Assembly: GCA_963841755.1 (NCBI GenBank)
Contig: CAWJDX010000005.1
Location: forward strand, 6,830 to 70,829
DNA from: an uncultured Candidatus Rokubacteria bacterium
GTDB lineage: Bacteria; Methylomirabilota; Methylomirabilia; Rokubacteriales; CSP1-6
DNA: 64,000 bases
Direction: 5' to 3'
The translations under genes were made by a program, and so were the position numbers. Numbering within the stretch: the first letter of the stretch is position 1; each line of letters begins with the position of its first letter. The notes below the pieces were generated by a model. The model did no database searches. It had not been told where the DNA came from and saw only the letters and a list, made by a program, of their open reading frames with translations. Shown here one piece after another: positions 3,455 to 54,554 of the stretch.

Positions 3455-4239
3455 GCTCCCATGGCCAGGGGGGACGGCCGGCCGGGCCGAGCGCGCCCGA
3501 GCCCAGCTTCGGCGAGCAGGCGCGCACGCTGGTGCACCTCGCGCCCTCCGGCACCCTGGGCACGCTCTCGCGCCGCCATCCCGGCCACCCCTTCGTGTCG
3601 GTGATGCCGTACGCGCCCGACGATCGCGGCCGGCCGCTGGTCCTGATCAGCGGGCTCGCGATGCACACCCAGAACCTCGACGCCGATCCGCGCGCGAGCC
3701 TGCTCGTGGTGCAGGCGGGCCACGAGGATCCGCTCGCGATGGCCCGCGTCACGCTCATGGGTCGGGCCCAGCGCCTGCCCGCGGCCGACCGCGCGGCGGC
3801 CCGCGAGGCGTACCTGGCGCGCCACCCGAACGCGGTGCACTGGGTCGACTACGGGGACTTCGCGTTCTGGCGTCTCGACCTGACCGACATCTACTTCGTC
3901 GGCGGCTTCGGGGCCATGGACTGGCTCACCGTCGAGGGCTACGAGGCGGCCCGGCCGGATCCGCTCGCCGACGCCGCGCCGGGCATCATCGAGCACATGA
4001 ACCGGGACCACGCCGACGCGCTGATCCTCTATGCTCGGGTGCTGGGCCCGGTCGCCGCCGACGCGGCCGAGATGGTCGCGGTGGACCGCCTCGGCTTCAA
4101 GCTCCGCGTCCGGGCGGGGGACGGGCTCGAGGGCTGCCGGATCGGCTTCCCGCGCGAGGTGACCGACACCGGGCAGTGCCGCCGGGTGCTGATCGAGATG
4201 GTCGAGGAGTGCCGGAAGCGAGTGGGCTCCGGCGTATGA
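3451..4239 (+). CDS. HugZ/HutZ-like heme-utilisation protein (pyridoxamine-5'-phosphate-oxidase fold plus DUF2470-like C-terminus)
   Basis: 262-aa ORF whose ATGA overlaps the cyclase stop. Patterns seen are GTLGTL...HPFVSVMPYA...ASLLV and C-terminal HMNRDHADAL. Confidence 0.6.
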   Translation: MSSHGQGGRPAGPSAPEPSFGEQARTLVHLAPSGTLGTLSRRHPGHPFVSVMPYAPDDRGRPLVLISGLAMHTQNLDADPRASLLVVQAGHEDPLAMARVTLMGRAQRLPAADRAAAREAYLARHPNAVHWVDYGDFAFWRLDLTDIYFVGGFGAMDWLTVEGYEAARPDPLADAAPGIIEHMNRDHADALILYARVLGPVAADAAEMVAVDRLGFKLRVRAGDGLEGCRIGFPREVTDTGQCRRVLIEMVEECRKRVGSGV

Positions 4240-24708: not shown

Positions 24709-24782
24709 CCGCGGATTCGCCGCGCTCCGGGCCACAAGTCGGGGTGTCCGGGTGAGGGGCTGGTGGTATCCTTTCCCCCGGC

Positions 24783-27349
24783 ATGGACTACCGACTGCCG
24801 ACGACCGTGGTGCCCTCGCGCTACGACATCCGCCTCGAGCCGGATCTCGAGGCCGCCACCTTCGCGGGCCACGAGACCGTCGCGATCACGGTCTCCGAGC
24901 CGGTGAGCGAGATCCTGCTCAACGCGGCGGAGCTGGTGATCCGCTCGGTGAGCGTGCAGACCGCCGACGGCCAGGTGGTGGAGGGGAGCGCCAGCCTCGA
25001 CGAGGCGGCGGAGCGGGCCCGGCTCACGTTCCCGCAGCCGATCCCGCCCGGTGAGCACCGGCTCACGCTCGACTTCACCGGGATCCTCAACGATCGCCTC
25101 CACGGCTTCTACCGCAGCACCTACAAGGACGCGGCGGGCGCCTCGCACACGATCGCGGCCACCCAGTTCGAGGCCACCGACGCGCGGCGCGGCTTCCCGT
25201 GCTGGGACGAGCCGGCGTGCAAGGCGGTCTTCGGCGTCACCCTGGTGATCCCGGAGGCGCTGGCCGCGGTGTCCAACACCCGGGTGACCGGCGAGTCGCC
25301 GGCCGGGCCGGGCAAGAAGGCGGTGGCCTTCGCGGACACCATCCGGATGTCGACCTACCTGGTGGCCTTCGTGGTCGGCGAGCTCGAGGCCACCCCACCG
25401 GTGATGGTGGGTCCCACCCCGCTCCGCGTGTGGTGCGTGCCGGGCAAGCTCCACCTGGCCCGCTTCGCCCTCGAGATCGGCGCCTTCGCCCTCGACTACT
25501 TCGAGCGCTACTACGGCCTGCCGTATCCGGGCGACAAGCTCGACATGCTCGCGATCCCCGACTTCGCGGCGGGCGCGATGGAGAACCTGGGCGCGATCAC
25601 CTATCGCGAGACCGCGCTCCTGGTGGACGAGGCGGCCGCCTCCCACACCGAGCGCGAGCGGGTCGCCGACGTGGTGGCCCACGAGATCGCCCACATGTGG
25701 TTCGGCGACCTCGTGACCATGCTGTGGTGGAACGGCATCTGGCTCAACGAGGCCTTCGCCACCTTCATGGAGCTGCTGGCGGTCGACGCGTGGAAGCCGG
25801 AGTGGAAGCGGTGGACCACCTTCGGGGTCTCGCGCGCCGCCGCGATGGCGGTGGACGGGCTGCACAACACGCGGCCGATCGAGTTCGAGGTGCGGGCCCC
25901 GCGCGACTGCGAGGCGATGTTCGACCTGCTCACCTACGAGAAGGGCGCCTCGGTCCTGCGCATGCTCGAGCAGCACCTGAGCGGCGAGCTGTTCCGGGAC
26001 GGGGTGCGGCTCTATCTCGAGCGTCACCGCTTCGGCAACGCGGAGACCACCGATCTCTGGAAGGCGCTCGGCGACGCCGCGCGGCCTGCCGATCCCGGAG
26101 GTGATGGACGGCTGGATCTTCCGGCCGGGATACCCGCTCGTGATCGTGGAGCCCGACGGCACCGGCATCAAGCTCAGCCAGCGCCGCTTCACCTATCTCC
26201 CGGCCGAGGGCGCGGCCTCCGAGCACTGGCAGATCCCGGTGCGGGTGCGCGCCTCGGTCAAGCGCGGCTTCGTGGACAAGCCGGTGCTCCTGGGCGCCGA
26301 GCGCCCTCACCGTCTCGCTCCCCGCCGCGCCCGACTGGGTGGTGGTCAACGCGGGCGGGCACGGCTTCTACCGGGTGCAGTACGCGGCGCCGCTCCTGCG
26401 CAAGATGACCAGCTCGCTCAAGAAGCTCGCGCCCATCGAGCGCTTCAACCTGGTGAGCGACGCCTTCGCGCTGGCCCAGGCGGGCCTGATGCCGTCGCCG
26501 GACTACCTCGATCTGACCGCGCGCTTCGGCGAGGAGACCGACCGCAACGTGTGGGCCGCGGTCATCGGCTCGTGGGGCTACGTCAACCGCGTCATCGCGG
26601 ACGACCGGCGGGCCGATCTCGAGGCCCTGGTGCGCCAGCGGGTGCAGGCGGCGGTGGAGCGGCTCGGCTGGGAGGCCCAGCCCGGCGAGACCGAGCTGGA
26701 GCGACAGCTGCGCGCCGATCTCCTGCGCACCGTGGGCACCCTCGGCAACGACCCCGCCACCCAGGAGCGCGCCCGCGCCCTCTACGCCCGCTACCGGGAG
26801 GACGAGTCGGCGGTGGACCCGGACGTGCTGCCCGCGCTCATCGCCATCGTGGCCGCGGCGGGCGGGGAGACCGAGTACGACGAGTTCCTCCAGCGCTTCA
26901 AGGCCGCGCGCAGCCCGCAGGAGGAGCAGCGCTACCTCTACGCGCTCGCCGCGTTCCGCGCGCCCGAGCTGATCCGCCGCACCCTCGAGAAGACCACCAG
27001 CGGGGAGGTGCGCAGCCAGGACGCGCCGTTCCTGATGCGGGCGCTCCTGGCGGGCGTGCACAGCCGGGGCCTCGCGTGGGACTACGTCAAGGCGAACTGG
27101 GAGACGATGGCCCGGCAGTACCCGGGCAGCGCCTACCGGCGGATGTACGAGGGGGTGACCGCGCTGGTGAGCCCGGAGTGGGAGCGCGAGGTGGGGGAGT
27201 TCTTCACCAGCCGCAAGATCGTGCTCGGCGGCAAGACCCTCGAGCAGTACCTGGAGCAGCTCCGGATCGCGGTGAGCTTCCAGGAGCGCGAGGGCGCGGC
27301 GCTCGCCGCCTATCTCGCCAAGCCGCCCCGCCCCCCGCGGGCCCGCTAG
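24783..27349 (+). pseudogene. pepN: M1-family aminopeptidase N, two frameshifts as sequenced (near 26082 and 26305)
   Basis: GAMEN exopeptidase motif and HEIAHMWFGD...WLNEAF zinc site. The sequence continues GLPIPEVMDGWIFRPGYP (frame +1), then LTVSLPAAPDWVVVNAGGHGFYRV... (frame +2) to stop 27349. Confidence 0.9.
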
Positions 27350-27373
27350 GGCCCGGCCGCTCCCGCGCCGCGG

Positions 27374-27721
27374 TCAGCGGAAGAGGGAGCCGAAGAAGTC
27401 CCGGACGCTCGAGCCGAAGGCGACCGCGCCTTCCTTGGTCCGCTCCCACGCGGTCTTGGCGTCGGGCGCCGCCGCCTGCCCGGCCTCTCCGAGCTTCTGG
27501 CCGGTGTACTTGGCGCCTTCCACCACCGTGTTGCCGATGCCCTTCGCCGTCTCGCCGGCGCCCTCGAGCACCTTGCCCTGGCCGATCTGACCGGCCCCAC
27601 GCTGCACCTGCTGGGTGGCCGCGTCCACTTCCGAGCGGTCGGCCGCCGGCGCGGGGGCGTGACCCAGCCCGACCATCGCCGAGATCGCCAGCGTGACCAC
27701 CATCGAGCGAGCTCTCACCAT
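27374..27721 (-). CDS. small secreted hypothetical protein (115 aa)
   Basis: MVRARSMVVTLAISAMVGLGHAPAPAA is a signal peptide. A GGGAGG RBS lies upstream of the start at 27721. Confidence 0.55.
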   Translation of the reverse strand: MVRARSMVVTLAISAMVGLGHAPAPAADRSEVDAATQQVQRGAGQIGQGKVLEGAGETAKGIGNTVVEGAKYTGQKLGEAGQAAAPDAKTAWERTKEGAVAFGSSVRDFFGSLFR

Positions 27722-27758
27722 CGTGCGCACCTCCCTCGGTTGGCTTGATCGCGAATTC

Positions 27759-28895
27759 ATGGTAACACCGTGCCCGGGGCCGGACCGCATGAACGCGACC
27801 ATTCTTCACCGCAGCGACGCCATCCGGGTGAGCGACGCCTCCGTCGAGGACGAGGCGCTCTGGCTCACCCCGGAGGAGCTGGCCCGCGCGACCGAATGGG
27901 AGTGGACGCCGGACGGCCTCTGCCGGGGCGCGCTGTGCGTCCCGGTGCCGCCGGGCGCTCCGTGGGTGCGGGAGGCCGGCCCCGCGACGCGCCTCGACCT
28001 CGCCGGCCTCGCGCGGCATCTCGGCCAGCCGGTGGCGGCGAGCCCGGCGCACGGGGTGTGGGCCATCGGCGAGTCGCACGCCGCGCTCGGCGAGCGGCTC
28101 GACTCGCTCGACGCGCCCGACTTCACGCTGCCGGACCTGGACGGCCGGGCCTGGTCGCTGCGGGACTTCCGCGGCCGCAAGGTGTTCCTGCTCGCGTGGG
28201 CGTCGTGGTGAGGGTGCCGCTTCGACCTGCCCGGGTGGCAGGCGCTCCACGCCGAGCTCGAGCCGAAGGGGCTGACCGTGATCACGGTGGCGCTCGACAG
28301 CGCGGGCGCGGCCGCGGCGGGGGAGTGGATCCGCGCGGCGCAGCCGACCCATCCCGCCCTGATCGACGCGCACTATGACCTGGCCACGCGCTATCACCTC
28401 GTCAACGTGCCGAGCGCGGTGTGGATCGACGAGCGCGGGCGCATCGCGCGCCCGGCCGAGGTCGCCTTCGCGGACAACCGCTTCATCGCGTACACCAAGT
28501 TCGACATGACGCGCTACCTGGACGCCATCCGCGACTGGGTGGCCAAGGGGTCCGCGAGCGGCCACGTGAGGCCGCCGGCCGGACGCCGGGAGCGGCTCTC
28601 GCTGCCCACCGCCGCGCACGCGCAGGCGGCCGCCTGCTTCCGCCTCGCCGAGCACCTGCACGCGGCAGGGGCACGCGGAGGCCGCGGTGCCGTTCTTCAA
28701 GGAGGCGCAGCGCCTCGAGCCCGAGTCGTGGTGCTACAAGCGGCAGGCCTGGGCGCTGACCGACGCGGAGCGGTTCTATTCCACCACCTTCCAGGACGAG
28801 GTGAAGGCCCTGGGCGGGCGACCGTACTATCCCCGTCCCGACTTTCCCCCCGAGCGTTTCCCCCGACGCTCCCGAAGAAGAGGGCCGAGCCATGA
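27759..28895 (+). CDS. thioredoxin-fold (TlpA/ResA-like) redoxin with in-frame TGA at the active-site position (candidate selenocysteine; W-A-S-W-U-G-C) and a TPR-like C-terminus; C-terminal part frameshifted as sequenced (near 28670, probably also in C-runs near 28855 and 28868)
   Basis: ORFs 27693..28211 and 28278..28895 share one frame and are separated only by TGA 28209-28211. Read-through gives FLLAWASW-U-GCRFDLPGWQALHAELEPKGLTVITVALD...NVPSAVWIDERGRI. The alternative start is 27789. An end at 28895 would give an ATGA overlap with the next gene. Confidence 0.6.
28226..28242 (+). promoter_or_regulatory. SECIS-like hairpin downstream of UGA 28209
   Basis: CCUGCC-CGGGU-GGCAGG is a 6-bp stem with a G-rich 5-nt apical loop. 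It begins 14 nt after the UGA. Confidence 0.4.
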
Positions 28896-29743
28896 AATAC
28901 GGCGTGTTCCAGTTCTCCACCGACTACGCGATCCGCATCGACGACCTGGCGCGCGAGACCGAGGGCCGCGGCTTCGAGTCCCTGTTCGTGCCGGAGCACA
29001 CCCACATCCCGGCCAGCCGCAAGAGCCCGTGGCCGGGCGGGGCCGACCTGCCGCGCGAGTACTGGCACACCGTCGACCCGTTCGTCGGCCTGGCCGCCGC
29101 GGCGGCGGTGACCACCCGGCTCAAGCTCGGCACCGGCATCTGCCTCGTGATCGAGCGCGACCCGATCCTCCTCGCCAAGGAGGTCGCGAGCCTCGACTAC
29201 CTCTCGCGCGGCCGCGTGCTCTTCGGCATCGGGGGCGGATGGAACGCGGAGGAGATGGCGCATCACGGGACCGACTTCGACGCGCGCTGGAAGGTCCTGC
29301 GCGAGCGGATCGCCGCGATGCAGGAGATCTGGACCAAGGACGAGGCCGAGTACCACGGCAAGTTCGTGAACTTCGACAAGCTGTGGTCGTACCCGAAGCC
29401 GGTGCAGAAGCCGCACCCGCCGATCCTGATGGGCGGGGCCGGCCCGCACGCGCGCCAGCGCGCGGCGGAGTTCGGCGGCCACTGGCTGCCGATCGGCGGG
29501 CGCTCCTACAGCGAGCCGATCGCCGAGACCATCGCGGATCTGCGGTCGCGGGCCGAGAAGGCGGGCCAGGATCCGGGCGCGGTCACCGTCTCCATCTTCG
29601 GCGCGCCCACCGACGAGACGCGCCTGGCCGGCCTGCGGGACGCGGGGGTCACCCGCGCGATCTTCGGGCTACCGCCCGCGGGTCGCGACCAGGTCCTGCC
29701 GCTCCTCGACAAGTACGCGGCGCTGGCCGCGCGGATCGGCTAG
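28892..29743 (+). CDS. luciferase-like monooxygenase family, F420-dependent oxidoreductase type
   Basis: 283-aa ORF with MKYGVFQFSTDY...GFESLFVPEHTHIP...GIGGGWNAEE, typical of LLM-class F420 enzymes. Confidence 0.8.
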   Translation: MKYGVFQFSTDYAIRIDDLARETEGRGFESLFVPEHTHIPASRKSPWPGGADLPREYWHTVDPFVGLAAAAAVTTRLKLGTGICLVIERDPILLAKEVASLDYLSRGRVLFGIGGGWNAEEMAHHGTDFDARWKVLRERIAAMQEIWTKDEAEYHGKFVNFDKLWSYPKPVQKPHPPILMGGAGPHARQRAAEFGGHWLPIGGRSYSEPIAETIADLRSRAEKAGQDPGAVTVSIFGAPTDETRLAGLRDAGVTRAIFGLPPAGRDQVLPLLDKYAALAARIG

Positions 29744-30967
29744 GCCGGCCGCGCGATCGGCGACGACCGGGTGACGAGGCAGAAGACGCTGAGCGCGCCG
29801 AGCCCGGTGAGCGCGATGCCGAGCGCGCAGAGGTAGATCACCAGGTAGGAGCCGGTCCGGTCGAAGAGGATGCCGGAGAGCCACGGGCCGAGCGCGGCCC
29901 CCAGGTTGTTGCCGATGCCGAGCAGGCCGAAGATGACGCCGTACTGCGCGGGCGGGGCGATGCGCCCGAGCAGCACGGTGACGATGCTGGCCCGCGAGCC
30001 GAGCGGCAGGAACAGGAAGAAGACGTAGCCGCGCCGCCAGCACCCACGCCGGACGGAACTCCATCCCGATCAGGCACGCCATCCCCACGCAGCGAGCAGG
30101 AGAACGAGAGAAAGCCCGCGATGGGGCCGCCGAGGCGGTCGGCGGTCAGGCCCGCGAGCGCGCGGCCGGCGCCGGCCAGGAGGCCGCCGATGGCGAGGAG
30201 CACCGAGGCCTGGCCCGCGGAGAAGCCGCGCTCGACGAAGTAGAGCGCGTGCTGCGTGGTGGCCAGGTAGCCGAAGAGCGGCGGCGTGGTGAACATCACG
30301 AAGCAGGCTCCAGAAGCCGGCCGAGCGCACGATGCTGGCGATGGTCACCGCGGCGCTCTCCGACGCACCGGTGCCGCCGCTGCGGACCGACGCGAGGTGC
30401 GTCGGGATGCGCGCGCCACGCCCACGGGATCAGCGCCAGGATCGCCGCCGCGTAGCACCAGAAGGCCGGCCGCCAGCCCCAGTGGGTGATGATCCACTGG
30501 GCCGGGGGCGCCAGGGCGTACGCGGCCATCGACCCGCCGAAGGCGATGCCGGTGGCCAGGCCCCGGCGGCGCACGTAGGCGTCCGCGATCAGGGCGGCGT
30601 GGGTCGTCATGCCGGTCAGGCCCAGGCCGATGCCGCCCCCGATCCCCATCGCGACCAGGAACAGGCGGCAGGGTCGGGGCCAGGCTGCCCGAGGAGCATG
30701 CCCGCCGGCCACGATGGCCAGGCCGAGGCAGACCAGCCGTCGCGGGTTCCAGCGCGCGACCAGGTAGCCGGCTACCGGGCTCAGCAGGGCCCCGCCGATC
30801 CAGAGCAGGGAGGCGGTCGAGGCGGTGGCGGCGCGCGAGCCGCCGAACTCGGCCAGGAGGGCGGGCAGGAACACCGGGAAGGTATTGGTGATTCCGGCCA
30901 CCAGCAGCATGGTCGCGAAGGCGAGCCAGAGCCGCTGGCTGGCAAGGGACTCCCGCGGTGGAGTCAC
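29740..30967 (-). pseudogene. MFS transporter (oxalate/formate-antiporter-like), at least 4 frameshifts as sequenced
   Basis: A hydrophobic TM-like reading passes through the minus-strand ORFs 30296..30967, 30070..30348, 29838..30299, 29669..30088 and 29740..29976 in turn. Each step equals one extra base. Confidence 0.7.
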
Positions 30968-31007
30968 CCGAGGGTAGGGGGAACCGGGCCGGGAGGCCCG
31001 GGAGAGC

Positions 31008-31214
31008 TCAGTCGTCCGCCTCGGCCCGCTTCATGGCCTTGCGGCGCTTCTTGCGCGCCTCGGCCTGCTTCCGCTTGCGCTTGACCGACGGCTTCTCGTA
31101 GTACGCGCGCTTCTTCATCTCCTTGAAGAGCCCATCCTTGAGCATGAGCTTCTTCATGGTCTTGAGCGCGGACTCGACCTGATTGTCGTGCACCTCGATA
31201 CGCATGACAGGCAC
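31008..31214 (-). CDS. rpsU: 30S ribosomal protein S21
   Basis: (M)PVMRIEVHDNQVESALKTMKKLMLKDGLFKEMKKRAYYEKPSVKRKRKQAEARKK. GTG start at 31214, with an alternative ATG at 31205. Confidence 0.9.
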   Translation of the reverse strand: MPVMRIEVHDNQVESALKTMKKLMLKDGLFKEMKKRAYYEKPSVKRKRKQAEARKKRRKAMKRAEADD

Positions 31215-31421
31215 GGTAACCGGAGGGCGGGCTGCTGTCAATGCCTGAAGTTGGGCCCTGGGCCGCAACCCCCGGAGATTACAGGGTGAGCGCCGCGCCT
31301 AACGCGGCGCGGTCGAGCCGCGGAGTCTGCTGGTGCTCCGCACCGGCCTGCGGGACGAGTCCCGAATGGCGGACGGAAGCGTCGAGTCGAGTAGGCGCGG
31401 AAATAGGGTACCCTGCGGGCC

Positions 31422-31733
31422 ATGGCGACCAACGATCGCGTGCTCCTGACCGTGCTGCTCCACCACGACCAGTCCAAGCCCCTCGACGAGATCATGGCGC
31501 ACCTCAAGAAGACCGGGTTCTACCGCGACTTTCCGCCCGAGGGGAGCGAGCTGGTCTCCTGGGTGGTGGCGATGTCGTTCGGCTTCATCATCCAGCTCCG
31601 CGTCGAGCCGGACAAGGTGCGCGCGCTGAATCGCTACATGGAGCAGAAGGCGTGGGGCGCCTTCCGCTACCAGGTGTTCCCCGCGTACGATTTCGCGCCG
31701 ATCGCGGCCAATCTGAAGACGGAGCACGCGTAG
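31422..31733 (+). CDS. small hypothetical protein (103 aa)
   Basis: Intact ORF with coding-like GC3. No motif was recognised. Confidence 0.5.
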
Positions 31734-31740
31734 CCGGTTC

Positions 31741-32744
31741 ATGGCCGCACCGCCCGCCCGGCTCGAGCTGGCCCTCGCGCCCGACTCCGATTCTCAAGCT
31801 CGATCGACTCTCCCGCCGCCTCGGGGTGGAGCTTCACGTCAAGCGCGACGACCTGACCGGCCTCCTCGAGTCCGGCAACAAGGTCCGCAAGCTCGAGTTC
31901 CTGGTGGGGGAGGCGCTGCAGCAGGGCGCCGACACCCTGGTCACGTGCGGCGCGCTCCAGTCCAACGGCTGCCGCGCGGTCGCCGCGGTGGCGGCGCGGC
32001 TCGGGCTGCGCGCGGTGCTCCTGGTGCGGGGCGAGCCGCCCGTCGGCCTACGACGGCAACCTCCTGCTCGGCCGTCTCCTCGGCGCGGAGGTGCGCTACT
32101 GCGCCGAGGCCGACTTCGCGCGGGCGGGGGAGATCATGGAGACGATGGCGACCGAGATCCGGGCGCGCGGCGGACGACCGTACCTCATCCCGGAGAGCGG
32201 CGCCAACGAGGTGGGCGCGCTCGGCTACCTCGAGTGCGCGGTCGAGCTGAGCGAGCAGATCAACCACGGGGCGCCGCGCTTCGACGCGGTGGTCATCAGC
32301 GCGTTCACCGGCGGCAGCCAGGCGGGCCTCCTGCTCGGCAAGCGGCTGGCCGGGCTGCCCGGGGAGATCGTGGGCGTGCCGATCGCGCGCCCGGCCGAGC
32401 GGGTGCGGGAGCACGTCGTGCACACGATGGCGCGCGGCGATCCGGCGGTACGGGTTCTCCATCGACGTGCCCGAAGACGATTCACCTGCTGGACGGCGAT
32501 CCGCGGCGGCGACGGCCAGGACGCGACCGACGCGGATCTGGCCGTGCTCGTGGAGCTGGCGCGGGAGGAGGGCGTGCTGCTCGATCCGGTCTACACCGCG
32601 CGCGGATTCCGGGGGCTGGTGGAGACGCTCTCGCGCGACCCGAAGGCGCTGGGCCAGCGCGTCTGCTTCATTCACACCGGAGGGCTCTTCAGCCTGTTTC
32701 CGTACCGCGAGCGGCTGAGCCGGCTGATCGACGGCGGGGACTAG
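31741..32744 (+). pseudogene. PLP-dependent D-cysteine desulfhydrase/ACC deaminase family protein, about 5 frameshifts as sequenced (near 31783, 32047, 32430, 32479, 32501)
   Basis: The reconstructed reading is [14 protein letters not shown]|[26 protein letters not shown]...[10 protein letters not shown]...|[17 protein letters not shown]...|[16 protein letters not shown]|IHLLDGD|[13 protein letters not shown]...LDPVYTARG. Each junction is a +1 shift. Confidence 0.75.
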
Positions 32745-33505: not shown

Positions 33506-33663
33506 CGAAGCCCCTCATGAGACCACAGTTCCCCTTGTGCGGCCATTGGGCGATTTCGCGGATTCTAGTCTAGCAGCGAGAGGGGGGTCAAGCCGAGGGA
33601 ATTGGATGCCTCCGGCGACCCAACTGCGCGTCCCAGTGGAAAGATTCCGATACACGGCCGGCC

Positions 33664-34979: not shown

Positions 34980-34991
34980 CGCCCCGGAGCG

Positions 34992-35843
34992 CTATCGAAC
35001 CCCGGCCAGGAGCTCGCCCTCGAAGGCCAGGACCTGGTCCACCACCTCGTCCGGCGTCTGCAGGACTCCGTAGAGCCCCGCGTAGACGATGGACGGATCG
35101 TGGCCACGCCCCGCCACCGCGCGCAGCTCGTCGTCGAGGCGCCGACAGGCCTCGCGGTAGCGCCCCGAGGGCTCGTCGTCGAGCAGGGCCTCGTCGAGGG
35201 CGGCCGCGTAGAGCCGCTCCGAGCGGGCCAGGTGGTGGAGCACGCGGCGGAGCGGCCAGCCGCCGTCGGGAGGGAGCCAGTCGAGCTCGGCCTCACTGAG
35301 CCCGGCCGCCCGCTGCGCGACGAGCCGGACCGCCTGGTCGACCCGCCAGAGCCACGCGTCGAGATCGGCCGCGGTCAGCGGCAGCCGATCGTCCGCCAGG
35401 GTCACCGTCGACGGCACCCAGCCATCGGTCGGGGTCGGGACGGTGCCGTGCCGCTGCCACGCGATCCACTGGTCGATCTGGTTGAGGTGATCCAGCGCGT
35501 GGTCGAGCACCCGCCGGAGGGCCTTGCGCGGGGTGTAGGTATAGCGGCCGACCCCGGCCGGGGCGGTGAGCGGAGCCGGATGGGCGTCGGTGAGCCGCGA
35601 GAACAGCTCGTCGGTCATGACCGCCGGGATCTCGCGGCCCGGATCGTGGACGGTGAGCCGGGCGAGGTGACGGCGCGCCTGCGCGTGGGCCGCCTCGACG
35701 TGGCGGGCCGGGTCGCGCGGCGCGGGCGCCAGGGTCCAGGCCGCGACCGCCCGCACCGCGGTGGCGTGCGCGAGGACGATGCCGCCGTCGGCGCCCGTCT
35801 TCAGCACGCGGTCTCTCGATGCGTCGAGGGCGGGCGCGCTCAT
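34992..35843 (-). CDS. DinB-like (four-helix-bundle metal-binding) family protein
   Basis: It starts at MSAPALDAS (CAT 35841-35843) within ORF 34992..36278. His-containing helices LDHALDHLNQI and VLHHLARSE resemble DinB_2-type proteins. Confidence 0.5.
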   Translation of the reverse strand: MSAPALDASRDRVLKTGADGGIVLAHATAVRAVAAWTLAPAPRDPARHVEAAHAQARRHLARLTVHDPGREIPAVMTDELFSRLTDAHPAPLTAPAGVGRYTYTPRKALRRVLDHALDHLNQIDQWIAWQRHGTVPTPTDGWVPSTVTLADDRLPLTAADLDAWLWRVDQAVRLVAQRAAGLSEAELDWLPPDGGWPLRRVLHHLARSERLYAAALDEALLDDEPSGRYREACRRLDDELRAVAGRGHDPSIVYAGLYGVLQTPDEVVDQVLAFEGELLAGVR

Positions 35844-36202
35844 CGGGCAGCCGTCACCATGATCTCGACGAGCAGGCCCGGGCTGGTCAGCTCGGCCTGG
35901 ACGCAGGCGCGCACCGGCGGGTGCTCGCGATCCACCCACTCGTTCCAGGCGAGGTTGTGGGTCCGGAAGAGCGCCATGTCGGAGAGCCACACCTGCGCGG
36001 TCAGCAGGCGCGACTTGTCGGTCCCGGCCCGGGCCAGGAGGTCGTCGATCCGCTCCAGGGCCTGGCGGGTCTGGGCGGTGACGTCGCCGACCGGATCGCC
36101 GGTGATCCCGCAGACGTACACCCGGTCGCCCTGCGCGACGACGCGGCTGATGATCGGCTTGAAGTTCTCGCTGTCCATGATGAGGTGGCGCTCGATGTCC
36201 AT
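35840..36202 (-). CDS. RidA/YjgF family reactive-intermediate deaminase
   Basis: MDIERHLIMDSENFKPI...VYVCGITG...TAQVWLSDM...PVRACVQAEL. An AAGGAG RBS precedes the start at 36202, and the stop overlaps the next gene (ATGA). Confidence 0.75.
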   Translation of the reverse strand: MDIERHLIMDSENFKPIISRVVAQGDRVYVCGITGDPVGDVTAQTRQALERIDDLLARAGTDKSRLLTAQVWLSDMALFRTHNLAWNEWVDREHPPVRACVQAELTSPGLLVEIMVTAAR

Positions 36203-36260
36203 GACGGTATCTCCTTTCGCACGACAGCATGCCGCGCCGGCTACCATCCGTCGAATGCAT

Positions 36261-36285
36261 ATAGCTGACTCCGGCCATCAGCTAT
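36261..36285. promoter_or_regulatory. LysR-type operator candidate: perfect inverted repeat ATAGCTGA-N9-TCAGCTAT
   Basis: Located in the 84-bp divergent region between the RidA operon (start 36202, minus strand) and the LysR gene (36287/36296, plus strand). It fits the T-N11-A-type dyad architecture. Confidence 0.5.
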
Positions 36286-36286
36286 A

Positions 36287-37225
36287 GTGATCGCGGTGAC
36301 CATCGACGAGATCGAGACCTTCGTCTCGATCGCCCGCCGCGGCGGCTTCGCCCGCGCCGCGGAGAGCCTGCACCGCTCCCAGCCCGCGATCAGCCGGCGC
36401 GTCGAGATGCTCGAGCAGCAGCTCGGCACCCCGCTCTTCGAGCGGGTGCGCGGCGGCGTGATCCTGACCGAGGCCGGCCGCACCCTGCTGCCCTACGCGG
36501 AGGCGGTGCTGGCCGGTCTGAAGGACGGTGCGGAGGCGGTGCGGGGCCTCGCGCGCGGCGAGCGGGGCGCGGTCTCGGTGGCGCTGGTGGGGACGCTCGC
36601 CAGCACCCGCTTCGCGGGCATGCTGCGCCAGTTCGGCCAGCGTCATCCGTCCGTGAAGCTCGAGCTGCGGACCGCGAACAGCGAGGAGGTCAGCGACCTG
36701 GTGCGGCGCGGCGAGGCCACCCTGGGGCTCCGGTACTTCACCGACACGGATCCGGGGCTCGTCTCGGAGCAGGTCACCGAGGAGGCCCTCGTGCTCGTCT
36801 GCTCGCCGGATCACCGCCTCGCCGGCCGCCGGGTGCGCGACCCCGGCGCCCTCGCGGGCGAGCGCTGGGTGGCCTTTCCTCCCCGGCGCCGGCGGCGCGA
36901 GCCCTTCGCCACCGCGCTCGAGCAGCGGCTCGCCGCGGCCGGCATCGAGGCGGCGGAGATCGTCCGCATCGACAGCCTCACCGCGCAGAAGCGACTGGTC
37001 GAGGCGGGGTTCGGGATCGCGCTCCTCATCGAGAGCAGCGTGCAGGAGGAGCTGCGCCTGGGCTCGCTCGAGATCATCGACGCGCCCGCGCTGCGGGGCG
37101 GCGTGCCGGTGACCCTGGTGCGACGCCGCAACGGGTACCTGAGCGGGGCCGCGCAGAGCCTCGTGGCGGTGATCAAGGCGGGCGCGACGACGCGCGCCCG
37201 CCGCCGACGGGCGGCCGGCCGGTGA
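36287..37225 (+). CDS. LysR family transcriptional regulator
   Basis: The N-terminal wHTH is IETFVSIARRGGFARAAESLHRSQPAISRRVEMLEQQLG. The alternative start is GTG 36296. Confidence 0.9.
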   Translation: MIAVTIDEIETFVSIARRGGFARAAESLHRSQPAISRRVEMLEQQLGTPLFERVRGGVILTEAGRTLLPYAEAVLAGLKDGAEAVRGLARGERGAVSVALVGTLASTRFAGMLRQFGQRHPSVKLELRTANSEEVSDLVRRGEATLGLRYFTDTDPGLVSEQVTEEALVLVCSPDHRLAGRRVRDPGALAGERWVAFPPRRRRREPFATALEQRLAAAGIEAAEIVRIDSLTAQKRLVEAGFGIALLIESSVQEELRLGSLEIIDAPALRGGVPVTLVRRRNGYLSGAAQSLVAVIKAGATTRARRRRAAGR

Positions 37226-41028: not shown

Positions 41029-41560
41029 ATGGGCGACAACGTGGTGCTGGTGGGGTTCATGGGCGCGGGCAAATCCTCGGTGGGGCGGCTCCTCGCCCGC
41101 CGGATGGGCCGCTGCTTCGTCGAGACCGACGACATGATCACCGCGCGCGAGGGCCGCTCGATCCCCGAGATCTTCGCCGAGCGCGGCGAGGCGCACTTCC
41201 GCGCCCTCGAGGAGGAGACGGTGCGGCTGCTCGCGCTCAAGTCGGGTGACGTGATCGCCACCGGCGGCGGCCTCTACTGCCGCGACGGGCCGGCCCGAGG
41301 CCCTCCGCGCGATCGGCACCGTGGTGTGGCTCACCGGCAGCTTCGACGTGCTCTACGAGCGGGCGCGCCGCATGGGCGAGCGCCCGATGCTGGCGGGCCG
41401 GACCCGGGACGAGGTCGCCGACATCTATCACGCGCGCGAGGCCTACTACCGCCAGGCCGATCTCACCGTCGATACCACCGGCCGCAACACCGACCAGGTG
41501 GTCACCCAGGTCCTCCTCGCGCTCCGGCCGCATCTCTCCCGTGCCGGGGGGAGCCGGTAG
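41029..41560 (+). pseudogene. aroK: shikimate kinase, frameshifted as sequenced (near 41292)
   Basis: VVLVGFMGAGKSSVGRLLA...FVETDD...FRALEE...VIATGGG. It then continues PEALRAIGTVVWLTGSFDVLYERA... in frame +1 (ORF 41321..41560). Confidence 0.85.
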
Positions 41561-52626: not shown

Positions 52627-54468
52627 CTACAAGATCCGCTCGTAGCGGCCCAGGTCGTGGGCCGCGTCCATGAACCACTTCACGATCTCGGGATTCGACC
52701 GCGGCGGGATCTCGCACGAGGTGGACAGGATGAAGCCCGACTGCCGCGCCGCGGTGTCGATGCAGCGGCCCACCTCCCCCTCGATCTGCTGACGGGTCGC
52801 CTTCTCGAACATCGTCGCGTCGACGTTGCCGATGGCCACCGCGCGGCCCTTGGCCACCTGCACGAACCGCTCGAGCTGGTCCACGTGCAGGGTCGGATCC
52901 GACTGCTGGTCGAGATCGAACGAGATGGTGGTGAAGCCACAGCCGATCAGGTCCTCGAAGATCGGGTAGGTGACGCCGCAGATGTGGGCGGTGACGCCGA
53001 CCTTCTTGGCCTTGAAGTGGTCCACCAGCTCCTTGTGGTAGGGCGCGATGAACTCCCGGTAGTTGTCCGGAGAGACCAGGCTGATCGACGCGGTGGGCTC
53101 GGAGAACGAGAGCCCGATCTTGGTCTTCGCGATCGCGTCGCCCCAGAGCTTGCAGAAGTCGGTGGTGAGCCGCATGAGGTCGTGGATGAACTGGGGATCC
53201 TCGAAGGTGTCGAGCAGCATCATCTCCGGGTTGCGCAGCAGCATCGCGATCGTCCACGGCCCCACCGCCACCGCGCCGGTGGCCGCGGGCGGTGCCGCCT
53301 TCACGAGGGCCTCGCACTGCTCGAGGAAGCCGGGCAGCCGCGCGGTCTTGTACGGATCGGGCATCGAGAGCTTGGCCAGATCCGCCTTGTCCTCGAGGAG
53401 GTGGGTCTCGATGGAGGGCACCACGTAGTCCGAGTACTTCACCCCGCAGCCGAAGGCTTCCGCTTCCTTGGCCAGATCGTTGTAGGCGAGGACCACGTCC
53501 GGCTGGTAGCGCTCGTAGTAGTTCATCATCGCGCTGATGGCCCGGGTCGGGTTCGTGCAGTACTCCTCGATGCTGAGCCCGTCGAGCGTTCCCGCGAAGG
53601 AGGCCACGATCGGGTAGACCGGCACCCGGTCCGAGAACGAGCGCTTGTAGGCCGCCACCACCCGGTCCCGGTTGGTCAGGGCGGTCTTGCCCTTCTCCGC
53701 GTCCCAGAGCTTGTTCACCTCCATGTAGCGCGGGGGCAGCTTGGCCTCGTACTCCATGAACTGGGTGATCGGGTAGCGGATGCCCCCGTTGTGGGTGCCG
53801 CGCAGGCCCTCCACCATCTCCTCCATCCGGCTCCACGGAATGGAGAACGCCATTTCATGATCCTGGGTCTGGCCGAAGATGCGATCGCCCGAGCACGGGA
53901 GGATGACCTGCGGCTCGCCGGTCTTCATGGTGGTCACGATGATGTCCGCGCACACCGCCCGGCCCTCGAACGAGGAGGTGAGCCGGCCGCCGCGCTTCCA
54001 GAGCGCGGCCTGGGTCAGGCGCATCACCTGGGCGGGGTTGGCGTAGACGCACACCACGTGCGGCTCGAAGGTGGCGCGGTCGAGGGGAGCCACCAGGAGG
54101 CAGTGGTACTCGCCGGGGGCGAACTTGTCGATGGCGGCCTCGGAGCGCTGGCCCGCCTCCTTGGTCTCGGTGTACATGCCCTCGCACAGGGTGCCCACGT
54201 TGTAGATGGGCAGCGGCTTGTCGAAGCCGATCGCGGTGATGCCGAGCGAGCAGATGTGGTCCTCGCGGGTGAGGGCGATGGTCCAGCCGTAGCGGCGGGA
54301 CATGTCGATGACCTGGCAGCTCATGGAGAGCTTCTTGAAATCGCGCGCGGGCCGGCGGGCACGCTCGGGAATCGGCTCGTCGGCCCGGAGCATGCGGATG
54401 GCGACCGGGAAGGTCTGCGGCCTCAGGTAGGTCTGCAGCTCGCGGTCCGCCGTCTTCACGTCGATCAT
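52627..54468 (-). CDS. fusion protein: N-terminal DUF169-like domain plus C-terminal uroporphyrinogen-decarboxylase-fold (MtaA/CmuA-type) methyltransferase-like domain
   Basis: 613-aa intact ORF with a GAGGAGA RBS. The first 250 aa or so resemble DUF169 (...LSMSCQVI...CSLG...VILPCSGDR...). The remainder resembles URO-D-family methylcobamide methyltransferases (...GPWTIAMLL...AHICG...ILSTSCEIP). Confidence 0.65.
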   Translation of the reverse strand: MIDVKTADRELQTYLRPQTFPVAIRMLRADEPIPERARRPARDFKKLSMSCQVIDMSRRYGWTIALTREDHICSLGITAIGFDKPLPIYNVGTLCEGMYTETKEAGQRSEAAIDKFAPGEYHCLLVAPLDRATFEPHVVCVYANPAQVMRLTQAALWKRGGRLTSSFEGRAVCADIIVTTMKTGEPQVILPCSGDRIFGQTQDHEMAFSIPWSRMEEMVEGLRGTHNGGIRYPITQFMEYEAKLPPRYMEVNKLWDAEKGKTALTNRDRVVAAYKRSFSDRVPVYPIVASFAGTLDGLSIEEYCTNPTRAISAMMNYYERYQPDVVLAYNDLAKEAEAFGCGVKYSDYVVPSIETHLLEDKADLAKLSMPDPYKTARLPGFLEQCEALVKAAPPAATGAVAVGPWTIAMLLRNPEMMLLDTFEDPQFIHDLMRLTTDFCKLWGDAIAKTKIGLSFSEPTASISLVSPDNYREFIAPYHKELVDHFKAKKVGVTAHICGVTYPIFEDLIGCGFTTISFDLDQQSDPTLHVDQLERFVQVAKGRAVAIGNVDATMFEKATRQQIEGEVGRCIDTAARQSGFILSTSCEIPPRSNPEIVKWFMDAAHDLGRYERIL

Positions 54469-54554
54469 GAATGGTCTCCTCAGTGACGGAGGCTACGGGG
54501 GGCCTTCGGGGTTGTCAAGGGAGCGGGCCGCCTTCCGCTACAATGTGCAGTGCC

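Follow-up and report, generated by a model that had tools for sequence, protein, structure and literature searches.

A window of 64,000 nucleotides of DNA from an uncultured Candidatus Rokubacteria bacterium (contig CAWJDX010000005.1) was analyzed around a TGA codon lying within a gene for a thioredoxin-fold protein. Here “the window” denotes this whole stretch, and all positions are counted from its first nucleotide. The gene belongs to family NF041054, thioredoxin-fold oxidoreductases with a U-G-C motif, and very probably encodes a selenoprotein, in which a selenocysteine insertion sequence (SECIS) directs the insertion of selenocysteine (Sec) at the position of the nucleophile. The features at the center of this proposal are the following.

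27789 to 28895, plus strand: selenoprotein gene of about 365 codons, not counting three spurious inserted bases, assigned from NF041054, Pfam and homologue alignment.
28209 to 28211, plus strand: in-frame UGA, predicted to be read as Sec at residue 141, the first position of the U-G-C motif (28209 to 28217).
28226 to 28242, plus strand: candidate SECIS hairpin CCUGCC-CGGGU-GGCAGG, with a stem of 6 bp (28226–28231 paired with 28237–28242) and a loop at 28232–28236.

The G+C content of the whole window is 71.6%. Both strands were scanned for TGA codons having on each side 40 stop-free codons with high G+C content at the third codon position (GC3). Three sites were recovered (873, 4237 and 28209), and only that at 28209 is internal to one protein; those at 873 and 4237 each mark the ordinary end of one gene, with an unrelated gene after it. 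GC3 is 1.0 in both 40-codon flanks of TGA 28209–28211. This codon is the sole stop between two open reading frames (ORFs) in the same frame, 27693..28211 and 28278..28895, and translation through it yields ...KVFLLAWASW*GCRFDLPGWQALHAELEPKGLTVITVALD..., with the motif W-A-S-W-[TGA]-G-C at 28197–28217. A preliminary description of the region had reported this two-ORF arrangement with the same peptide. Its frame and its TGA were correct, but its start at 27693 is replaced here by ATG 27789, and the downstream ORF is not clean, containing three inserted bases. The revised start places 140 codons before the TGA, in agreement with many homologues and with a 140-aa gene call on L201, an independently assembled megahit contig (ENA ERZ27257266). 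Intact orthologues in L201 and in two related loci, L001 and L002, have the same start and stop as the window gene. Note that UGA is an ordinary stop codon in this genome: it terminates the same gene at 28893–28895 and is the stop of about half the high-GC3 segments of the window.

Family assignment was made with the read-through protein, with C in place of U and after correction of the first frameshift (near 28664). This query matched the NCBIfam model NF041054, “ResA-like WAxxUGC motif-containing protein”, with 337.2 bits (E = 1.3e-100). The model (WAxxUGC_long, profile length 354) is a curated equivalog with a cut-off of 300 bits; a ResA-like family named for a WAxxUGC motif, which the preliminary description had mentioned, thus exists and includes the window protein. 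The protein carries the W-A-x-x-U/C-G-C motif of the family, and its end-to-end alignment with homologues of 340–410 aa corresponds to the “long” architecture of about 350 aa. Scores against other redoxin equivalogs fell below their cut-offs (ResA, 58.7 versus 170; TlpA, 42.5 versus 230; DsbE, 18.2 versus 123), and the StoA model was likewise far under its own. The Pfam family AhpC/TSA (PF00578) was matched with 61.5 bits against a gathering threshold of 26, and the AhpC/TSA and Redoxin matches span residues 108–220.

A phmmer search of PDB sequences gave a match spanning residues 104–223, in which WASWCG.C of the window protein was aligned to WASWCGPC or WATWCPPC of solved thioredoxin-family (ResA/TlpA-type) proteins. 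By this alignment the Sec codon corresponds to the first, nucleophilic Cys of CxxC, in a motif one residue shorter (U-G-C). The TGA therefore falls on the first Cys of W-C-x-x-C in solved structures, the position to which the preliminary description had assigned it by reference to TlpA/ResA-type redoxins.

Homologue searches returned the nearest relatives (60–96% identity) almost entirely as C-terminal halves of 193–204 aa that start just after the TGA, with a few of 205–219 aa, as would result if gene callers stopped at the in-frame TGA. Full-length homologues (340–410 aa, 37–50% identity) all read W-A-S-W-C-G-C. At the TGA column, all 22 aligned full-length homologues have Cys, which is also invariant in an alignment of 84 homologues; G142, C143, D146, L147 and W150 are likewise invariant among the 22. 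No homologue was seen to end at this position or to carry a residue other than Cys, the outcomes that the preliminary description had named as contrary to its proposal. Conservation of the protein extends through the 22 codons that separate the TGA from GTG 28278, which include the invariant G-C and D-L..W.

For comparison at the DNA level, the 80 best-matching loci were taken from a scan of one genome per GTDB species. TGA was present at the same codon in 77 of these, and TGC or TGT in three: L058 (Frankia tisae, two copies), L059 (Binatia) and L070 (Myxococcus eversor). The context W-A/G/S-S-W/Y-[TGA]-G-C was found at 75 loci (76 gene copies); two loci from Chloroflexi, L055:687 and L077:817, have W-A-S-W-[TGA]-S-C, so that their variant of the motif is U-S-C, and they share the downstream hairpin. 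Sec forms occur in Methylomirabilota/Rokuibacteriota (L001 and L002, at 88–89% identity, as well as L003 and L028), Acidobacteriota, Binatia, “delta proteobacteria”, Chloroflexota/Dehalococcoidia, Gammaproteobacteria/Burkholderiales, Solirubrobacterales and other Actinomycetes (Actinomycetota), and Rhodothermota. L201, which is about 98% identical to window positions 26889–31748, also retains the TGA, and not the TGC or TGG that reads might have revealed; its protein is uninterrupted on both sides of the codon. The retained TGA with its intact flanks rules out an error of base calling, a nonsense mutation confined to one strain and a pseudogene.

Two loci of the sample hold duplicated genes. 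In Candidatus Angelobacter, an Acidobacteriota metagenome-assembled genome (MAG), two tandem Sec-form copies (L016:2124 and L016:3418) lie about 1.3 kb apart, and the two Cys-form copies of Frankia tisae (L058:3361 and L058:5798) lie about 2.4 kb apart.

The hairpin begins 14 nt after the TGA and its loop begins at the 21st nt, both as stated in the preliminary description. Its minimum free energy (MFE) is −9.3 kcal/mol, and its loop, CGGGU, has G at position 2 followed by G, where the family consensus is N-G-G/U-N-U. A published model of the bacterial SECIS (bSECIS; PMC13188914) specifies an apical loop of 3–9 nt, an upper stem of 4–16 bp, a UGA-to-loop spacing of 16–37 nt and an MFE of −7.5 or lower. 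With a loop of 5 nt, a stem of 6 bp, a spacing of 20 nt and an MFE of −9.3, the hairpin lies within all four limits, and the spacing is in the bacterial range, as had been proposed.

Conservation of the hairpin was analyzed in 77 aligned segments from Sec forms, 76 of them distinct. RNAalifold applied to these segments returned the stem at 28226–28242 and nothing else; an extended lower stem, present in the MFE structure of the window, was not supported across the family. Stem cells were paired in 98.7% of cases among the 76 distinct Sec forms, versus 27–65% for controls in which the 3' arm was slid, and none of 500 shuffles matched the observed pairing or covariation. Alignment pair 31–45 is C-G in 60 sequences, U-A in 13, U-G in three and broken in none, and its changes are synonymous (CUG..CAG to UUG..CAA). 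Alignment pair 30–46 is C-G in 56, U-A in 12, A-U in one, U-G in one and broken in six, with changes of the type GAC..GCN to GAU..AAR. Since synonymous choice follows genome G+C, expected values were computed from each gene's own codon usage. By this control, the combination CUG/CAA, which would place a C.A mismatch in the stem, was expected 13.2 times and observed zero times, and UUG/CAA was expected 5.2 times and observed 13 times. All 77 copies use YUG for the Leu in the stem, whereas YUG accounts for only 47% of the Leu codons in the same genes.

As a control, 76 Cys-form family members with the pattern TGGGCNTCNTGGTGYGGNTGYCG were collected from metagenomes. In these, 64% of cells were paired and all six pairs were present in nine of 76. 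At the Leu position, 27 have CTG and 25 have CTC, with Val, Gly, Asn or Ile codons among the others, and the peptide after C-G-C is variable (ELGGWQ, DLSGWR, DVAAWQ and others), whereas the peptide after U-G-C in Sec forms is almost always DLP[GV]WQ or DLSVWQ. Upkeep of the stem is specific to UGA-bearing forms, and the hairpin therefore behaves as expected of a SECIS. In Sec forms, this hairpin, written in the codons of D-L-P-G-W-Q, constrains both the peptide and the synonymous sites. The hairpin that the preliminary description called SECIS-like is thus accompanied by compensatory changes, which are found in Sec forms only.

Several observations weigh against Sec insertion. When positions 28205–28270 were folded, the z value was +1.4 and 186 of 200 shuffles were at least as stable. 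Because the sequence is 72% G+C, the hairpin alone is unremarkable; the single-sequence fold is uninformative, and the significance of the hairpin comes from comparative data only. The L-P-x-W-Q peptide on its own encodes much of the stem, and the clades sampled for the Sec and Cys sets are largely different, so that the contrast between their hairpins could partly reflect phylogeny. No selA, selB or selD was found among the scanned high-GC3 ORFs of the window, some frameshift-broken stretches being unscanned, and ARAGORN found no tRNA, and hence no tRNA-Sec, in the 64 kb. Finally, the literature contained no experimental selenium incorporation for any member of the family, which is listed as predicted and not as validated (PMC13188914).

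Related searches concerned the decoding machinery more widely. Rfam gave no match on the whole window. None of selA, selB, selC and selD adjoins the related loci L001–L060, whose flanks contain no tRNA-Sec and only a tRNA-Met and a tRNA-Val. Literature searches gave nothing relevant on selenocysteine in Rokubacteria, and no papers under the NCBIfam designation of the family. A 2026 review describes a Methylomirabilota MAG with 63 predicted selenoprotein genes, which gives indirect support, at the level of the phylum, for the use of Sec.

Three other explanations of the TGA were weighed. One is that the UGA is recoded to Cys or another standard residue by a Sec-like tRNA charged with Cys and a SelB-type factor, using the same hairpin. 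Systems that recode Sec to Cys are said to have been described by Mukai et al. in 2016. SelB-dependent insertion of Cys would agree equally well with the hairpin, with the conservation of the TGA and with the existence of Cys homologues, and the scanned ORFs of the window include neither selA nor selD. However, NCBIfam and selenoproteome surveys treat the family as a Sec family, and large predicted selenoproteomes have been reported for Methylomirabilota MAGs. Moreover, TGA has been kept across many phyla although it is one base away from TGC and TGT, which is hard to explain without an advantage of Sec. We consider recoding to Cys very unlikely.

A slightly poorer account is low-level read-through of the UGA by a near-cognate tRNA (for example tRNA-Trp) without dedicated machinery, the hairpin being a by-product of D-L-P-x-W-Q codons. 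The stem is indeed largely set by the peptide: among 15 Cys forms with the peptide xL[PS]xWQ, five have all six pairs. In the same 15, however, the Leu codon is CTC or CTT in seven and C.A mismatches are present, so that Cys forms with this peptide tolerate what the Sec forms do not; in the latter, the synonymous sites covary and C.A mismatches number zero against 13 expected. A Trp at the catalytic Cys would also inactivate a redox motif that is otherwise invariant. Read-through of this kind is accordingly judged highly improbable.

The remaining explanation involves the quality of the deposited sequence, which was assessed by comparing window positions 26889–31748 with L201. The window has ten extra single G or C bases (28664, 28854, 28877, 30031, 30090, 30304, 30403, 30666, 30687 and 30704), or about one per 490 bp, all outside homopolymer runs, and no single-base deletions. 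Apart from these bases, the two sequences differ in length only by a 2-nt gap, and no difference creates a stop through an in-frame change. Seven of the extra bases are in a gene for a major facilitator superfamily (MFS) transporter (29740–31000), and three are in the selenoprotein gene. The one-directional, insertion-only error profile looks systematic for the whole record. The three in the selenoprotein gene are listed here.

28664 (± 2 nt), plus strand: extra G causing a +1 frameshift, not present in L201, L001 or L002.
28854 (± 2 nt), plus strand: extra G causing a second +1 frameshift, from alignment to L201 and L002.
28877 (± 2 nt), plus strand: extra G causing a third +1 frameshift, which brings back the original frame before the stop, from alignment to L201 and L001.

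Frames were reconstructed using P0001, L001, L002 and L201 as reference sequences. Past 28664, the conserved peptide ...HAEAAVPFFKEAQRLEPESWCYKRQAW... carries on in the +1 frame. Between 28664 and 28854 the peptide is conserved only in that frame, and the extra bases are accordingly judged to be errors of the record. They are located in the deposited assembly itself, since the frameshifted ORF of 205 aa (P0037) is found in a public protein collection. The three shifts sum to +3, and ORF 28278..28895 therefore still reaches the true stop. The preliminary description had noted that other disruptions in the window shift the frame by +1 and that the TGA, which preserves it, lies outside the same error process. 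Both points hold: all ten single-base length differences relative to L201 are extra G or C in the window, and indel-type errors give no in-frame TGA.

A similar disruption may affect the gene for aminopeptidase N (M1 family) at 24756–27349, which is represented by two overlapping ORFs in different frames (24756–26408 and 26144–27349). This region is outside L201, and the split is presumably due to another inserted base.

That the TGA is a real stop (giving a 140-aa protein and a separate protein from GTG 28278), a pseudogene lesion or a base-calling error is the least probable explanation: gene callers do make this split and the window record does contain many errors, but a stop would interrupt the thioredoxin fold right in the active site, the 22 codons before GTG 28278 are conserved as protein with their invariant G-C and D-L..W, the TGA recurs in 77 other loci as well as in the independently assembled short-read contig L201, and all ten single-base length differences from L201 are insertions, none of which is an in-frame change that creates a stop.

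Under Sec insertion, positions 27789–28895 of the plus strand would form one gene for a three-domain thiol/selenol-disulfide oxidoreductase without a signal peptide. The UGA at 28209–28211 would escape reading as a stop, with the hairpin at 28226–28242 serving as a bacterial SECIS. By analogy with established bacterial Sec decoding, the hairpin would recruit SelB-GTP-Sec-tRNA(Sec) to the ribosome, and Sec would be incorporated as residue 141. Sec141 would then be located at the N-terminus of helix alpha-1, where its position in the alignment is that of the nucleophilic first Cys of CxxC. Together, Sec141 and Cys143 would constitute the U-G-C pair, which is expected to cycle between selenol/thiol and selenenylsulfide forms.

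The domain architecture was examined by alignment and by structure prediction with AlphaFold2. The domains have the following limits.

27789 to 28073, plus strand: N-terminal beta-rich domain, residues 1 to about 95, with the motif G-x-C-x4-C-x-P, from alignment and an AlphaFold2 model.
28101 to 28463, plus strand: thioredoxin-fold (ResA/TlpA/DsbE-like) catalytic domain, residues about 105–225, from Foldseek, phmmer and Pfam.
28464 to 28892, plus strand: C-terminal all-helical (TPR-like) domain, from helices 237–337 of the model of homologue P0035 and a weak Pfam TPR_2 match.

The model of P0035, a Cys homologue that is 46% identical, was obtained from an 84-sequence alignment and had a predicted local distance difference test score (pLDDT) of 95.6. 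Of its three domains, that at the N-terminus (1 to about 95) is rich in beta structure, the central one (about 105–225) has a thioredoxin fold and that at the C-terminus (about 230–340) is helical; the active-site Cys directly precedes a helix at 140–158. Foldseek searches of the PDB matched the central domain only, to ResA, DsbE, TlpA, StoA and relatives (E about 1e-11, target template modeling scores of 0.75–0.87). The window's own N-terminal 101 residues were modeled with a pLDDT of 92. For this N-terminal domain, Foldseek gave no significant PDB match (best E = 0.83), and no Pfam or NCBIfam domain was found. Its motif, G43-x-C45-x4-C50-x-P52, is invariant in both the 22-sequence and the 84-sequence homologue alignments. 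By inspection, the N-terminus of the window protein (MNATILHRSDAIRVSDASVEDE...) has no signal peptide or hydrophobic leader, and a hydrophobic leader is present in some homologues (P0009, P0011 and P0027). Note that the window copy of the C-terminal domain is scrambled by the three inserted bases.

The U-G-C domain and the N-terminal G-x-C-x4-C-x-P domain might together act as an intramolecular redox relay or a substrate-capture module, although we regard this as a doubtful, speculative suggestion. If it were true, the function would be distinct from cytochrome or copper-protein maturation of the ResA/TlpA type, and an uncharacterized soluble selenoenzyme activity would be widespread in soil and groundwater phyla.

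The window gene is the Methylomirabilota orthologue of an already catalogued, predicted selenoprotein family and is not new. Zhang and Gladyshev (2008; PMC2398784) listed “Prx-like (UGC-containing)” (pfam00578, motif UGC) as a predicted selenoprotein family, with 46 Sec sequences and 855 Cys homologues in the Global Ocean Sampling (GOS) data, and found it to be commoner in non-marine samples. NF041054 was equated with two literature names through the UGC motif and the Pfam/CDD assignment, without sequence comparison to their example proteins. With NF041054 itself, the window protein shares W-A-S-W-U-G-C, a length of about 350–370 aa, the three-part architecture and the Sec/Cys column, and no substantive difference was found.

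Among characterized redoxins, the protein resembles Bacillus subtilis ResA, Bradyrhizobium TlpA and DsbE/CcmG-type proteins in its thioredoxin fold, in W-[AG]-[ST]-W-C before helix alpha-1 and in the position of the nucleophile. It differs from ResA/TlpA/DsbE (cd02966) in having U-G-C (C-x-C type), which is one residue short of C-x-x-C, with Sec in place of Cys. ResA, TlpA and DsbE are extracytoplasmic, whereas neither a signal peptide nor a membrane anchor is present in the window protein. Relative to ResA/TlpA, it adds about 95 aa at the N-terminus and a helical region of about 130 aa at the C-terminus, both outside the structure matches. The protein may work like a ResA/TlpA-type redoxin, yet it falls outside those equivalogs. 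Predicted selenoproteins of the Prx-like and Trx-like UxxC types also have a Trx-like fold with Sec first in the redox pair, but theirs is UxxC in another domain architecture, and that of the window protein is UGC. 

Compared with the bSECISearch consensus, whose prototype is E. coli fdhF, the window hairpin is likewise in the ORF just 3' of the UGA, has G at loop position 2 followed by G/U, and is inside the consensus ranges. It differs in being minimal, with a conserved 6-bp stem, no detectable conserved lower stem and no bulged U in the conserved part. For the bulged U, the comparison is with the E. coli fdhF SECIS. The peroxiredoxin signature P-x3-T/S-x2-C (as given in PMC13188914) is absent from the window protein, in which F-L-L-A-W-A-S-W precedes U, with L at −7 and A at −3.

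Downstream of the selenoprotein gene is a gene for an F420-dependent LLM oxidoreductase (28892–29743; TIGR03619, 265 bits). The two genes overlap as follows.

28892 to 28895, plus strand: ATGA overlap of the true stop TGA (28893–28895) with the downstream start ATG (28892–28894), read from the sequence.

The ATGA junction is also present in L001, L002 and L201, and translational coupling of the selenoprotein and LLM genes through this overlap is possible. An LLM homologue follows the selenoprotein gene in L001, L002 and L003, and this pairing is not conserved beyond Methylomirabilota relatives. The small protein and M1 peptidase upstream and the LLM gene downstream are common to the nearest relatives only, and no family-wide operon partner was found in the neighborhoods of related loci.

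Elsewhere in the window, four further stops were considered as candidates for in-gene stops (TGA 873–875, 4237–4239 and 37223–37225, and TAG 41558–41560) and were rejected, the neighbors in each case being adjacent genes that belong to unrelated families or have no family match. Unrelated pairs at such stops included a Cas4-like protein (below cut-off) and a 3-oxoadipate enol-lactonase, a LysR regulator and an MBL-fold plus rhodanese protein, and a shikimate kinase fragment and a bifunctional homocysteine S-methyltransferase/MTHFR; at 4237, an ORF without a family match is followed by a nitrilase-family amidase. A minus-strand pair at TGA 33515–33517, neither half of which has an NCBIfam match, was judged from the translations to be separate genes.

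Two long ORFs were also noted. On the minus strand, 52627–54492 is a high-GC3 ORF of 621 aa with no NCBIfam match at E ≤ 1e-40; by eye, its N-terminal part looks DUF169-like and seems to be fused to a uroporphyrinogen-decarboxylase-like (MtaA/CmuA-type) part. The ORF at 34980–36287 (435 aa, GC3 0.84) has an odd translation rich in Arg, Gly and Val and no family match, and is probably not the coding frame.

The contrast between Sec and Cys forms provides a clean computational validation of a SECIS and leaves knowledge of selenoproteins unchanged. For annotation, what matters is that this gene is divided, in the public record and by all gene callers, into “hypothetical” halves of 140 aa and about 200 aa, and this occurs in hundreds of MAGs from soil and groundwater. 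Once the Sec codon is recognized, a complete redox enzyme is restored in the annotation, from a family that is common in Methylomirabilota, Acidobacteriota, Binatia, Chloroflexota and other uncultured soil lineages.

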